A stretch of DNA of 63,414 nt, the filler included, from Reclinomonas americana ATCC 50394 (lineage: Eukaryota): the NCBI GenBank assembly GCA_048213135.1. It is 15 parts of 15 records of this genome, joined end to end, with 100 filler letters (N's around TTAATTAATTAA, not from the genome) between each part and the next. Parts side by side here need not be neighbours in the genome. Positions count along the whole stretch, not along the records: positions 1 to 9,057 come from AFZH01016820.1; positions 9,158 to 12,915 come from AFZH01016825.1; positions 13,016 to 14,066 come from AFZH01016826.1; positions 14,167 to 18,480 come from AFZH01016827.1; positions 18,581 to 21,010 come from AFZH01016828.1; positions 21,111 to 23,522 come from AFZH01016829.1; positions 23,623 to 25,011 come from AFZH01016830.1; positions 25,112 to 32,047 come from AFZH01016832.1; 7 more parts are not named here. One strand, written 5' to 3'. The position numbers were made by a program, and so were the translations under genes. The notes under the pieces are model-generated. The model searched no databases. It had not been told where the DNA came from and was given only the letters and a program-made list of their open reading frames with translations. Below are positions 3,210 to 50,173 of this stretch, piece after piece (the first letter of the stretch is position 1; each line of letters starts with the position of its first letter).

Positions 3210-6200
3210 ATGTCGGTGTGTTTGTTTGTGTGCATTCTCACTCTTCCCTCCTCCTCTGTGTGTGCTCACTGTCCTTGTGTCAGTTCTCTGTGAATGTGAG
3301 TGCGGCGCATGATTCATCGCTGTCGGTGGTGGTGGAGGGCATGTCGGCCATGTCCACTCTCGCTGACTTGCTGCACGAGGCCACACGCTTGCTGCGTGGG
3401 AAGAGTGGGGATGAGCAGATGGAGATTGTAGGGGTGGAGAAGCCGGTGCCGTACAAGATGGCCAAGGCTGATGTTTTCGAGCTGGAAGACCTTGGCATCA
3501 ACTCATCAACACATCTTGTTGTCCGTCTGACACTTGGCGTGGCGCTGCAGTCGAGCGGAGGGAGTGGGAATGGAAGGTGTGTCTGGGATGTGTTTGTGAA
3601 TCATCCTCTGTGCAAAGCATGCAGCTCACTCTCCCGTCTCCGCACAGCAACTCGGAGCGAGTGACTCGGTTTGTTTTGCTTGCCTTCGTCCTTCTCTCTC
3701 CCCTGCTTGCTCTTTCTGTGATGCTGACAGCACTGAGTGCACAGCATGATCAACTCGCAGCGCATCACCATAGCCTTTGAGGTGGTGGAGGAGGCCGTCC
3801 GTCTGCGCTGTCAACGCGCGCTGGCGCAGTTCAGTCGCGATCATCCCGGCTTTGATGTGCGAGCGTGGGTGCCGAGCTTCACGCCTGCTGGCGTGCGTGC
3901 GGCGGCAGTGAAGGCGTGGCGCGAGCGACATGCTCCACTCCATACTGTTCGGGTTGCACTTTTCAAGGAGAAACAACCGGCGGCGTTGGCCTGGCGTGCT
4001 GCATTTGACGCCGACCCTTCGTCCGACCCTCCGTGTTCCGGACTCGACACGACGGCGCTGCATGCCATCATGCTGTATGGTGGCTTTGTTGAGGATGACG
4101 GTCGCAAGCTGCTGCTGGTTGACGATACTGATGAACGCAAGGCGGTGGAGGAGCTGAATGACGTGAGAAAGGCATTGGCGCACAAGGACCTTGTGCTGAC
4201 GGATGCCACTGTACAGCAGTACCTTGGCGACGGTGGTATCTACTTCTCCATCCTCTCTCGACTGCAGTTGACGGCTGACGAGCGAGCTCGATTCTCTGCT
4301 CGCATCTGTGAGGCGCGTCACGCTCGACACATTGTGGACACATTCGAGGAGCGACTGCACCGACTGGCTGTACGTGAGCTTTCGTTCTACCAACATGACG
4401 AAAGTGTGCGCAAGGACATGCAGATGTATGTGCCTCTGTTGTGCTCCCGTGAGCGTGACGTCTCCGCGAGTGACAAGATGACGGATCTTTTGACGGAGGT
4501 GGATGCATTCCTCTCCGACACCAACACCACCCAGCGTGTACTGGTGCTGTTTGGCAACAGTGGTGCCGGCAAGACCACCACCATGTCGGTGCTGGCTGAA
4601 CGTGCATGGCGACAGTGGCAGACGAGAGAGAGCAGGCGAGTGCCTGTGCGTGTGCCTCTTGGTGCTCTGCGCAATGCCGATGAGCGATTGTTGGAGGAGG
4701 CACTGGAGCGACTGTCACCCGAGTTGGGATTCAGTGAGTCGGATGTGCGACGGTTGAAGGAGGAACCACTGCTGTTGTTGCTTGACGGATATGACGAGTT
4801 GTACCGTGGTGTGAATCTGTTTGTGAAGAACCAGCTGGACGTGTGTCGCGATATGAAGGTGATTATCACTTGTCGTGGCGATTACGCACTGACGGCACTG
4901 GGCGGAGTGACACAGTATCGACGGTACTTTGCACCAGTGGATGCACGAGGGCAGTCGTGCTTGCAGCAACTGATGGAGCGACACATTGCGCCGTTCAATA
5001 AGGAACAGATTGAGGAGTACTTAGAGCGACTGGTGCAAGTTGGCGGTGATAATGGTGACGGTGAAGTGCGATGGTCCACTGCCGAGGAGTACATTCGTGC
5101 ATTGAAGAGTGTACACGGACTGGATGCGCTGGTGTCGAATCCATTCCTGCTGACAGTGGTGGCTCGTGTTTTGCCGCAGTTGGTTGCGAGTGGCGTGCAG
5201 CGACCGACTCGGTGTGATGTGTTCGACCGATTCATCCGACAGTGGATTGGGAGGGAGCAGGAGAGGCAGACGCGTCTTGGTGCGGAGCGTGTGCCGAGTG
5301 AGGAGACGTGTCTCTCATTTTGTGAGGGACTGGCACGGTTGATGCATGAGAGGAATGTGGTGCGCGTGTCTGTGACGGAGAGTCGGTCAGGCAATGGTGC
5401 GGAGGAGGAGGATGACTTTGGCGGCGCTCCACGCGCCTTGCGACGAGTGGAAGAGGGACCGTTCGACAAGTTCCTGGGCGAGAAGAACCAGCATGTGCGA
5501 GCGTGCTGTCCGATTGTGCGACGGTTCGGGACGACGCAGTGGGGATTCGTGCACCTGTCGTTGCTGGAGCACTGTGTGGCACGGCATGTGTTTGCGTGGG
5601 AGACGTGGGATGAGGAGAGGAGGTTGACGGTGCAAGATGTGCAGCAGCATGTGTTGGCAGTGCGACTGCTGAATGATCGACCATCACTGGTGGAGCAAAT
5701 GGCCGAGGTGGTGCGACGATCACCTGCGTTGCAAGCGAGACTGTGGGAGATGATTGAGTTGTCACGCGAAGTGGATGAGGAGCGAGTGGTGACGGCAGCC
5801 GCGAATGCAGCGACGGTGTTGTGTGTGGCGCAAGTGTCGTTTAGTGGGCGAGATCTGTCGGGTGTGCGAGTGAGGTGTGCGGATTTGAGAGATGCGGTGA
5901 TGCACAGGACGGTGTGGAGGGGGGCGGATTTGCGAGGGGTGAATGTGTGCATGGCGTATGCGAGGGAGGCGGATTTCAGAGGGGCGGATGTGACGGGTGT
6001 GAAGTGGCCGAGGAAGCCGATGTTGGGGCACACTGATTGGGTTAACTCCGTTGCCGTTACTCCCGATGGCCAGTTTATTGTGAGTGGCAGTGCGGACATG
6101 ACTGTACGGGTGTGGTCTGTGACCAGTGGCGAGGAGGTGCGTCGACTGGAAGGCCACACGAATTGGGTGTGTGCAGTGGCAGTGACGCACGATGGCCAGC

Positions 6201-7960
6201 ACGTTGTGAGTGGCAGTGGAGACAAGACTGTACGAGTGTGGTCACTGGCGACTGGCGAAGAGGTGCGACGGTTTACGGGGCACAGCAGTCAGGTGAACTC
6301 TGTCGTTGTTACTCCCGATGGACGGTTTGCTGTTAGTGGCAGCTGGGATAAGACAGTGCGCGTATGGGCATTGGTCACTGGAGAGGAAGTGCAGCGGTTG
6401 GAAGGACATACTGATGCAGTGATGTCAGTTACTATTACTCCCGATGGCCACCACATTGTGAGTGGCAGTAGGGACAAGACTGTACGGGTGTGGTCGCTAG
6501 CAAGTGGCGAGGAAGTGCGACGGTTTCAAGGGCATTCTAGATGCGTGAATTCGGTTGCCATCACTCATGATGGACAGCAAATTGTGAGCGGGAGCGACGA
6601 CGAGACGGTGCGGTTGTGGTCACTTTCGGGTGGAGAGGAAGTCCGACAGATGAATGGTTATCTGAGAGAAGTGCATACTGTTGCTGTTACTCCCGATGGT
6701 CGCCACATTGTGAGCGGGAGTCATGACAAGGTGGTGCGACTGTGGTCTGTGGCAAGTGGGGAGGAAATTTGCCGATTCGAAGGTCATACTCAAGAGGTGC
6801 TGTCTGTCGCCGTCACCCCCGATGGTAAGCACATTGTGAGCGGGAGCCGTGACAAGGTGGTGAGAGAATGGTATTTGGCAACTGGCGAGGAGACGCGACG
6901 ATTCGAGGGGCACACTCGAGAGGTGTTGTCTATCACGATCTCCCACGACGGTCTGCACGCAGTAAGTGGGAGCAGAGACAAAATTGTGCGAGTGTGGTCG
7001 GTGACGAGTGGTGAGGAATTGCGGCGATTGGAGGGACACAGGGGTGAAGTGCACTATGTCGCCATTACTTCCGATGGTCAGCACATTGTTAGCGGGAGCA
7101 GAGATATGACAGTGCGAGTGTGGTCGATGGACAGTGGGCTTGAGATTATGCGATTTGTAAGACACACTGATGGCCTAGATTCCTTCGCGATCTCTCTCGA
7201 TGGTCGACAAATGGTGAGCGCTTACGTGGACAGCACGGTGCGAATGTGGTCGCTGACGAGTGGCGAGGAGTTGCGACGGTTTGAGGGGCATTCCGAGCAG
7301 GTATCATGTGTTGCCATCACTCCCGACTGTCAGCGTGTTGCGAGTGCAAGCGCCGATGGGACGGTTCGAGTGTGGTCTGTGAATAGTGGAGAAGAGGTGC
7401 GACGGTTTGAGGGACACACGCATTATTTGCAATGTGTCGCCTTTACCCCCGATGGTCAGTACATAGTGTGCGGGAATGAGGACTTCACTGTGAGAGTGTG
7501 GTCTCTGGCGACCGGTGAGGAAGTGCGACGGTTGACTGGACACAATGGTTACATTATTTGTGTGTTTGTCACTTCCGACGGTCAGCACATTGTGAGTGGC
7601 AGTTCGGACATGACTGTACGGGTGTGGTCACCGGCGAGTGGCGAGGAGGTGCGACGCTTGGAAGGACATACTGGTGAGGTCCTGTCTCTCGATGTCACGC
7701 TGGACCGTCAGCATGTTGTTTGTTGGACAAGAGACAAGTCAGTTCGAGTGTGGTCCCTGGCGAGTGGAGACGAGGTGTGGCGATTCCACGGTTTCATGGC
7801 TGGAATTTCTCGTGTTGTTGTTGTTGTAAGTGATATGTGCGCCCTTGCGTACGGCAAGTCGATATTTCTGTGGAAGTGGCACAGAGATCAGCAGGGGCAC
7901 CTGCTGGAGCGAATTTACGGCACATTCATTCCGGACTTTACAGGCGCTCTGTGTGAGTAA
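3210..7960 (+). CDS. NLR-like STAND protein copy A: ubiquitin-like - HEPN - NACHT - pentapeptide repeats - 14x WD40 (~1511 aa)
   Basis: Model join(3210..3215,3284..3576,3648..3668,3745..7960); all introns GT-AG and in phase, and exons 1-3 are the same size as in copy B. Walker A GNSGAGKT (~4553), Walker B LLLLLDGYDE, NPFLL motif, wHTH-region GFVHLSLLEH, pentapeptide run FSGRDLSGVRV...ADFRGADVTGV, GH...WS WD repeats. HEPN-like DTTAL...VRKALAH (RxxxxH at 4166-4183). Confidence 0.9.
6026..7789 (+). repeat. 14 tandem 126-bp coding WD40 repeats (sensor of NLR copy A)
   Basis: 42-aa units of consensus GHTxxVxSVAVTPDGQHIVSGSxDxTVRVWSLASGEEVRRLE. Confidence 0.95.
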
Positions 7961-49655: not shown

Positions 49656-49722
<67 letters not shown>

Positions 49723-50173
49723 GGCGAGCACGGAAACGCGAACCAAAAGCAGCGAGAGACAGCGGCTGTCAGCAACGAGGAGAAGCCAGACGAACACAGA
49801 AAAGAGATGACATAGAAGAGAAAGATTCCTCATACACACACGCACGCACACACACAAACACAAGCACACACGACACACACAGGGCACTCACCGCTTGTCT
49901 CGTCTCTCTCCCCGCTTCGAACTCTTCATCCACTCCTTCATCAACTCCAATTTCCCCGCTGGCGATGCCTCCGTCTCTGCCGCACAGTTGCGCACGAATG
50001 CCGGCAGTTCACGCTCCACAAGAGCACGCAGAGCACGAGCAGCGACACCACACACAACTCGTGTGGCGCGCCAAAAGTTAGACCTGTGCGTGTGTGAGAA
50101 GAAGATAATGAGCACACTGCGACACCGCCTTGTGTGTTGAAGCACGCAACTCCTCGTCAGTGATAAGCGACAT
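42647..50173 (-). CDS. NLR-like STAND protein: HEPN - NB-ARC (AP-ATPase) - ~30x 42-aa TPR; in-frame TAG at 44758-44756 (truncated allele or possible pseudogene)
   Basis: Model complement(join(42647..47426,47499..47745,47908..48154,48227..48387,48464..48586,48664..48856,48920..49136,49892..50083,50151..50173)), all junctions in phase. HEPN EESNFWRATRVV...FDVSWL...LRNVRNALMH; Walker A GEGGSGKT; Walker B VMLLDNV; sensor-1 VLVTTR; GLPL-like ERPQAF; MHD-like YGVHDIV. Confidence 0.85.
42720..46470 (-). repeat. ~30 highly similar 126-bp coding TPR repeats (kinesin-light-chain/TPR_12-type)
   Basis: Consensus LAxCIxASGNLAEAERLYREVLxLxREVLGDRH(A/P)DTLxSMxx; 29 G(D/T)(R/K)H motifs counted. Confidence 0.95.

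Follow-up and report, generated by a model that had tools for sequence, protein, structure and literature searches.

A divergent HEPN-like domain on three candidate NLR-type STAND genes of Reclinomonas americana

Introduction

Can one effector domain be carried by protist receptors built on different NTPase switches and different sensor folds, and what kind of effector is it? This question is raised by a 63,414-nucleotide stretch of DNA from Reclinomonas americana ATCC 50394 (assembly GCA_048213135.1), referred to here in its whole length as the window, which contains three genes of the STAND type. Two are paralogues that combine NACHT, pentapeptide and WD40 modules (copies A and B), and the third combines a different NTPase module with an array of tetratricopeptide repeats (the TPR gene). 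Their N-terminal domains (N-domains) align with one another, and the shared domain is probably a very divergent HEPN domain of the Swt1-like/CXorf38/DZIP3 group. On balance, we favour reading the three as NOD-like receptor (NLR)-type STAND receptor genes with a HEPN effector and repeat sensors, in which the effector would act as a sensor-triggered RNase.

A shared N-terminal domain on three STAND genes

The spliced N-domain of the TPR gene matches that of copy A by BLASTP with an E-value of 5e-10 (29% identity over 145 amino acids). The Smith-Waterman score of this pair is 116, which none of 1000 shuffles reached (shuffle mean 32.5, standard deviation 5.1), and the score of the TPR gene against copy B is 118 (again 0 of 1000 shuffles). 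If a 63-nucleotide in-frame intron is left in the TPR gene, the BLASTP E-value is only 0.56. Four elements (W-x-x-A-x-DA, C-x-x-x-D, Rx4H and LGDG) are common to all three N-domains, and the D, R and H of the D...Rx4H pattern are retained in 3 of 3 copies. Judged by their sequences, the N-domains of A, B and the TPR gene are homologous. This bears out an earlier reading of the DNA made without database searches (the sequence-only reading), which had proposed an alignable N-terminal helical domain on three STAND genes with an R/H pair conserved across them; the peptides and motifs that it quoted are all present. No further copy of the domain was detected in the window by tblastn.

Copies A (3350-7960, + strand) and B (26288-30917, + strand) are paralogues. 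Their main open reading frames (3737-7960, 1407 codons, and 26655-30917, 1420 codons) become intact models of 1480 and 1490 amino acids when an upstream exon is added. In copy A the intron has a GT donor at 3577 and an AG acceptor at 3743-3744, and the phase fits. Exon 1 differs between the two copies mostly by third-position changes; an alternative ATG at 3341 in copy A has no counterpart in copy B, and the TPR gene has no counterpart of the exon itself. Residue numbers within the domain (1-190) count from the methionine at 3746 in copy A; in the two-exon model the domain spans residues ~77-265 and not ~105-320, where the sequence-only reading had placed it. The features of the two copies are as follows.

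3350-3576, + strand: copy A exon 1, encoding a 76-residue N-terminal extension without a Pfam family; start codon at 3350
3746-4315, + strand: copy A HEPN-like N-terminal domain, residues 1-190; D101 at 4046-4048
4166-4183, + strand: copy A Rx4H motif, R-K-A-L-A-H (R141, H146)
4535-5029, + strand: copy A NACHT NTPase, with P-loop GNSGAGKT and Walker B LLLLLDGYDE
5918-6001, + strand: copy A pentapeptide repeats, which follow the NACHT-associated helical region and precede the WD40 array
6020-7960, + strand: copy A WD40 array (~14 units, mostly at 42-amino-acid spacing), C-terminal tail and stop codon
26288-26514, + strand: copy B exon 1, conserved with copy A exon 1; in-phase GT-AG join
26673-27242, + strand: copy B HEPN-like domain, 85% identical to that of copy A; Rx4H at 27093-27110
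27243-30917, + strand: remainder of copy B down to the stop codon, with NACHT, a helical region, pentapeptide repeats and a WD40 array of 13 Pfam stretches

The TPR gene (50082-42647, - strand) was modelled with eight GT-AG exons of matching phases, giving 2048 codons.

49892-50082, - strand: first modelled exon, helix 1 of the HEPN-like domain; the 5' end is provisional
48920-49136, - strand: exon with W-x-x-A-x-DA and C-x-x-x-D, helix 2 region
48664-48856, - strand: exon with Rx4H and LGDG; R-N-A-L-M-H at 48826-48809
48464-48574, - strand: linker exon; an alternative acceptor 12 nucleotides upstream is likewise in phase
48227-48387, - strand: P-loop exon (GEGGSGKTTLA), with sub-cut-off Pfam matches only
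47499-48154, - strand: a pair of exons, 48154-47908 and 47745-47499, which contain Walker B VMLLDNV and also LVLVTTR; no Pfam family at E ≤ 1
46430-47426, - strand: first part of the last exon, a helical region after the NTPase; no Pfam family
42647-46429, - strand: TPR array of 30 tandem 42-residue units in register, and stop codon

A scaffold gap (49466-49565), flanked on either side by repeats of one kind (TC- and TCG-rich), falls in the intron between modelled exons 1 and 2, and the predicted join of these exons across it is based only on phase fit and homology.

The N-domain was searched for in other collections. None was found in 67 bacterial TPR loci (best E 0.27) or in a word-indexed protein search (candidates of 773-2463 amino acids), and pattern scans returned 23 matches in genome contigs and 593 in metagenome contigs, 0 of which were confirmed.

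Different NTPase modules and two sensor folds

All three gene models show a tripartite STAND/NLR-type architecture, with a putative N-terminal effector, a STAND NTPase and C-terminal superstructure-forming repeats. The NACHT, WD40, TPR and pentapeptide matches all exceed their Pfam cut-offs. In copy A these are NACHT (PF05729, E 2.8e-9, 37.5 bits against a cut-off of 26.7), pentapeptide repeats (PF00805, E 1.1e-7, 31.7 bits against 20.2) and WD40 (E 2.1e-141, 14 stretches). In the TPR array, TPR_12 (E 1.9e-128) and TPR_10 (E 9.7e-126) match 13 stretches in the upper 912-amino-acid frame. Pfam thereby confirms the two sensor folds claimed in the sequence-only reading, WD40 for the two paralogues and TPR for the other gene.

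Both kinds of array are highly regular. The 30 TPR units (42650-46429) have a mean pairwise identity of 73% and a maximum of 98%, and the WD40 units (6020-7762 and 28971-30806, + strand) keep a strict 42-residue register with a mean identity of 53-58%. Copy A is colinear with copy B from 3243-6763 and 26179-29694, respectively (84.5% nucleotide identity), and past 6763 and 29694 the two WD40 arrays are mutually rearranged. Their NACHT regions are 94% identical.

The NTPase of copy A aligns with a NACHT alignment at 4e-40 in hhalign. It matches the NTPase module of the TPR gene around the P-loop only (BLASTP E 0.004 over 55 amino acids). Pfam searches of the TPR-gene NTPase, run exon by exon and frame by frame, gave nSTAND3 (4.4e-5), NB-ARC (1.8e-4) and NACHT (5.5e-4) on the P-loop exon, all below cut-off, and no match on the other NTPase exons. 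In hhalign the module matched the NACHT alignment over only 33 columns (P 1.4e-4) and two bacterial TIR-NB-ARC-TPR proteins over only 23 columns (P 5e-4). By these comparisons the NTPase of the TPR gene lies outside the NACHT clade of A and B. The sequence-only reading had assigned the modules to NACHT and NB-ARC clades; their separation stands, as they are unrelated past the P-loop, but the NB-ARC label is unconfirmed, with sub-cut-off matches only. GEGGSGKTTLA, LLDNV and LVTTR look like the NB-ARC consensus, a resemblance that leaves the label unconfirmed. Since the N-domain is kept at 29% identity while the NTPases have no detectable kinship past the P-loop, the best explanation is that the chassis carrying it are of different origins.

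Relatives of the chassis were found for copies A and B. Mortierellomycota proteins share 28-32% identity with their NACHT-pentapeptide-WD40 chassis, a Nitrospirota metallophosphoesterase-NACHT protein shares 30%, and the N-domain of the window is absent from all 22 fungal and bacterial chassis relatives of the copy A NACHT region. Source names among these relatives (P0004-P0022) include 'Arm-like repeat domain-containing' for the fungal proteins and 'metallophosphoesterase' for the Nitrospirota protein. The NTPase of the TPR gene had no BLASTP match at 1e-3 in the 67 bacterial TPR loci, two of which (L043:4216-5700 and L040:1865-3400, found via their TPR repeats) are TIR-NB-ARC-TPR loci; in most of the remaining 65, no P-loop precedes the TPR array. 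No NB-ARC sequences were found in 61 actinomycete genomes at E ≤ 1e-20, and equally none in control genomes, which makes this negative uninformative.

Evidence that the shared domain is HEPN-like

Three kinds of comparison point to the same group of HEPN families. The first is Pfam, below its cut-offs. The best matches of A and B are to HEPN_Swt1 (E 0.018-0.065 for A and 0.094-0.18 for B; 12.6-15.7 bits against a cut-off of 27.5); both cover profile positions 73-100 of 115 and fall on the Rx4H block. The best match of the TPR gene is that of its Rx4H exon to DUF4559 of the CXorf38 family (E 9e-4, 19.2 bits against a cut-off of 27). The second is the ESM Atlas. For copy A, the 30 neighbours include HEPN_Swt1 (12 of 30), HEPN_DZIP3 (7 of 30) and DUF4559 (2 of 30), and nine of the ten best named neighbours belong to one family or clan; for the TPR gene they include HEPN_DZIP3 (12), DUF4559 (5) and HEPN_Swt1 at 0.88.

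The third is profile-profile comparison. Of 301 planctomycete genomes, 35 had a HEPN_Swt1 domain, and 31 such domains served as our reference; these sit in open frames of ~250 or ~1100 amino acids. An alignment of A, B and the spliced TPR-gene domain scored 28.1 against this set in hhalign (P 0.0014), which was unreached by 200 column shuffles (maximum 21.9) and by the reversed alignment (19.9), and the aligned region covers the Asp helix and the ER-x2-V-x2-L-x3-R-x4-H block. The TPR-gene copy alone scored 27.1 (P 0.0015), above 88 of 88 natural decoy segments (maximum 20.2), whereas A alone (19.7) and B alone (19.2) fell inside the decoy range. The link to HEPN is therefore carried mainly by the TPR-gene copy, and it reaches A and B via their 5e-10 match to that copy.

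A MAFFT alignment of 32 sequences, the three copies and 29 bacterial domains (L089 and L092, redundant with L088 and L091 in the domain region, were omitted), is collinear from helix 1 through the Asp and Rx4H helices to the RLL helix that comes next. D101, R141 and H146 are its sole invariant columns. D101 (in LDTTAL or FDVSWL) aligns with the Asp of WD-x3-LL in the 29 bacterial Swt1-like domains, and a predicted helix (128-145) has the Rx4H motif at its C-terminal end; in HEPN domains the position of this motif is the end of helix 3 (PMC3710099).

A homology-guided AlphaFold2 model (predicted local distance difference test, pLDDT, 73.9) was compared with 48,161 chains. The top match was a Csm6 HEPN domain (Z 6.2), followed by the C-terminal domain of yeast Swt1 (Z 6.1, root-mean-square deviation 4.0, 117 residues aligned). 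Among the top 50 matches are about a dozen further chains, including Sacsin HEPN, Cas13, MtlR, AbiF, LsoA and RnlA, which we take to be HEPN domains, partly from their entry titles and partly from general knowledge of these proteins.

Several results weigh against a HEPN assignment, and they bear on a rival explanation in which the shared domain is a lineage-specific helical domain whose likeness to HEPN in Rx4H and Asp is coincidental and whose weak matches arise from helical composition. All curated thresholds were missed: no Pfam HEPN model exceeded its cut-off for any copy, and HEPN_DZIP3 (PF18738) gave no match at E ≤ 1. HMMER was blind in both directions, as a family profile of the domain found no true relative among 1.84 billion representative proteins, and a bacterial Swt1 hidden Markov model gave only 7-9 bits on A, B and the TPR-gene copy. 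The N-domain profile matched 68 of the 301 planctomycete genomes weakly, with no match on the PF18731 loci of the 35 genomes. The hhalign probability for HEPN_Swt1 is only 17.9%, in addition to the decoy-range scores of A and B alone. Recognition of the TPR gene in the ESM Atlas is low (1968), with only four of the ten best named neighbours in agreement. The unbiased fold failed: AlphaFold2 run from the three copies alone gave an unusable model (pLDDT 42.6), the alignment behind the homology-guided model already included HEPN sequences and the model is not independent, Z scores of about 6 are frequent among unrelated helical bundles, and Foldseek found nothing for this model in the PDB at E ≤ 0.001. 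Against the rival explanation, however, three methods applied to two copies that are only 29% identical lead to the same families (HEPN_Swt1, DUF4559 and HEPN_DZIP3), the four helices align collinearly, and the TPR-gene copy alone exceeds every decoy. We therefore regard a non-HEPN origin as unlikely and a very divergent HEPN domain as the probable identity of the N-domain.

The sequence-only reading had named a HEPN domain of DZIP3/CXorf38/Swt1 type and had proposed modelling as a check. Sensitive methods agree with the type and the D, R and H are intact, but no curated threshold was passed; likewise, the model that best matches HEPN is the homology-guided one, while the three-copy fold was unusable and Foldseek gave no match.

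Two further matches were seen in these searches. The sole HMMER match among the representative proteins (P0003) is a repetitive 1000-amino-acid protein that was matched eight times, and it was rejected as a repeat artefact. In one planctomycete genome, a weak match of the N-domain profile (G151:C1:303750-303845, - strand, E 0.15) covers the Rx4H region and lies 3.5 kb from a HEPN_Swt1 match; it may be a chance match or a second HEPN gene.

Relation to known HEPN families

Close to the window domain among known families are the Swt1-like HEPN domains, which include bacterial forms fused to a STAND ATPase and TPR (PF18731; Anantharaman et al. 2013, PMC3710099). The (W)D-x3-L Asp of helix 2, the E/Q-R-x2-V-x2-L-x3-R-x4-H block and the RLL helix align between these domains and the window domain with collinear helices, this family is the best Pfam match of A and B, and the yeast Swt1 domain is second among structural matches. 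The window domain differs in its score (13-16 bits against 27.5), in inserts of ~40 and ~15 residues, and in the Lys that follows the Arg in A and B.

For CXorf38 HEPN domains (DUF4559, PF15112), fusions to NACHT and to DEATH domains have been reported from cephalochordates and from cnidarians, and an antiviral RNase role has been proposed (PMC3710099). This family is the best Pfam match of the TPR-gene copy and an Atlas neighbour of both copies examined there. Unlike the CXorf38 domains, which have a Zn ribbon inserted in the HEPN domain and an animal distribution (PMC3710099), the window domain has no evident ribbon, and its match is below cut-off.

DZIP3/hRUL138-like HEPN domains (PF18738) occur in fusions to TPR, NACHT and other domains and are expanded in Nematostella, in oyster and in Capsaspora, which is unicellular (PMC3710099). 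In the pearl oyster, more than 50 NACHT proteins have an N-terminal DZIP3 HEPN, with Rx4H as the commonest motif, and NACHT proteins there have LRR, TPR or WD40 at their C-termini (PMC9646362). The window domain resembles this family in its N-terminal position on NLR-type proteins with WD40 or TPR and as an Atlas neighbour of both copies, and is set apart from it by the missing Pfam match.

In their overall plan the three genes also resemble fungal and bacterial NLRs, which are tripartite, pair NACHT with WD40 and another nucleotide-oligomerisation domain (NOD) with 42-residue TPR units, and have highly conserved repeats. In fungal NLRs, effector, NOD and repeat domains are combinatorially assorted, so that one effector occurs on different NODs, NACHT favours WD or ANK repeats, and NB-ARC favours 42-residue TPR units (PMC4986451). 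HEPN is among the effectors of bacterial NACHT proteins (10.1101/2022.07.19.500537), and was not mentioned in the fungal NLR literature found by our search.

The HEPN-NACHT fusions that the sequence-only reading mentioned from invertebrates are indeed described from cnidarians and the pearl oyster (PMC3710099, PMC9646362). The novelty that it implied does not hold, as HEPN on NACHT, TPR and STAND chassis and reassortment between NOD types have already been described (PMC3710099, PMC9646362, PMC4986451). The architecture and effector reassortment are thus already known, and what is new is the window domain as a very divergent member. We found no report of HEPN-NLR genes in a non-holozoan protist in the literature searched (the supplementary tables of PMC3710099 and PMC9646362 were outside the search).

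Conservation of the putative active site

The Rx4-6H motif forms a metal-independent RNase site, in which R and H are required in RNase L, PrrC and RloC (PMC3710099). A HEPN-derived domain may nevertheless not be an RNase, and could instead recruit partners after oligomerisation, as a helical adaptor or as a module for RNA binding, like inactive HEPN domains elsewhere. The active-site dyad of eukaryotic Swt1 HEPN, including that of yeast, is classed as inactive, and for the Swt1-like group the motif is described as only 'partly conserved' (PMC3710099), which counts against RNase activity here. So does the residue after the Arg, which is Lys in A and B, polar but not the usual Asn, Asp or His. 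The large lineage-specific inserts, which the homology-guided model could not place (residues 47-77, pLDDT below 50), are a further point in favour of an adaptor. On the other side, the TPR gene has the canonical R-N, and no variation occurs at D101, R141 or H146 among the three copies and the 29 bacterial domains. These residues persist between gene types despite an overall identity of 29%, and the core of the N-domain is under purifying selection, with a ratio of nonsynonymous to synonymous substitution rates (dN/dS) between A and B of 0.165. The ratio is 0.23 for the N-domain as a whole and 0.064 for the NACHT region; such low values indicate that both copies have been retained by selection. 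A HEPN-derived domain without RNase activity is accordingly an improbable alternative, and a HEPN RNase effector remains the reading that we prefer.

The least likely explanation, which we set aside, is that the STAND genes are real but serve some other regulated process than immunity, or that the TPR gene is a decaying pseudogene and 'one effector, two working chassis' is overstated: an in-frame TAG in TPR unit 14 (44758-44756, where other units have Gln or Arg), the 5' exon beyond the scaffold gap inside the gene model, the lack of function-linked neighbours seen in the window and PADLOC models that matched only the P-loop all speak for it, and the first two also weigh on our reading. Against it, the frames of A and B are unbroken (1480 and 1490 codons) and under purifying selection, the TPR gene is open for 2048 codons over eight exons apart from this single TAG, and near-identical repeat arrays are a hallmark of fungal NLRs (PMC4986451). 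The TAG may have arisen by a recent nonsense mutation, represent an allele or stem from an error in sequencing.

A possible mechanism and its implications

HEPN active sites form across two domains, and STAND proteins activate effectors via oligomerisation. Binding of a ligand by the WD40 or TPR array would release the NTPase switch, after which the receptor proteins would oligomerise. Oligomerisation would pair the HEPN domains and so complete a metal-independent RNase site, and the paired site might cut cellular or invader RNA, leading to growth arrest, cell death or virus restriction. An immune role of this kind is a conditional part of our reading, as are the HEPN fold, the RNase activity and the activation by oligomerisation.

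We suggest only tentatively, and think it somewhat doubtful, that a deep-branching protist lineage built its own NLR-type immune receptors on a private, divergent HEPN RNase, two unrelated STAND NTPases and two sensor folds. If this is true, sensor-triggered RNA destruction by HEPN-NLR proteins either predates animals by far or arose independently in protists, animals and bacteria. HEPN-armed NLR-type receptors have so far been described from animals, one close unicellular relative of animals, and bacteria; if the window domain is an active RNase, their range would extend to a eukaryote distant from all those in the collections that were searched. As a candidate ligand-triggered RNase, the domain is compact. 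It also offers a test case for fast-evolving effectors that sequence methods miss, in that HMMER is blind to it and language-model features and profile-profile comparison point to HEPN.

Window layout and other genes

The DNA of the window is eukaryotic, with a G+C content of ~54%. Its 14 gaps each consist of 44 N, TTAATTAATTAA and another 44 N, and TTAATTAATTAA has stops in all six frames.

Gap starts: 9058, 12916, 14067, 18481, 21011, 23523, 25012, 32048, 34012, 35285, 37027, 38875, 49466, 61431

Copy A lies before the first gap (9058), copy B between the gaps at 25012 and 32048, and the TPR gene between those at 38875 and 49466, save its first modelled exon, which lies beyond gap 49466-49565. 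Because gaps separate the genes, the order of the three genes and the distances between them rest on the scaffolding.

No neighbouring gene linked to the function of the STAND genes was seen in the window, where the other genes found encode an XPD helicase and a protein with calponin-homology (CH) domains. The CH-domain frame lies at 57157-58674 (+ strand, E 1.4e-19). A 780-codon open frame without a Pfam family (15648-17990, - strand) lies in the most G+C-rich stretch of the window (63%). The XPD/Rad3-type helicase gene (9229-11543, - strand) has Pfam DEAD_2 and HBB matches, and its product is only ~50% identical to the XPD proteins of many unrelated eukaryotes.

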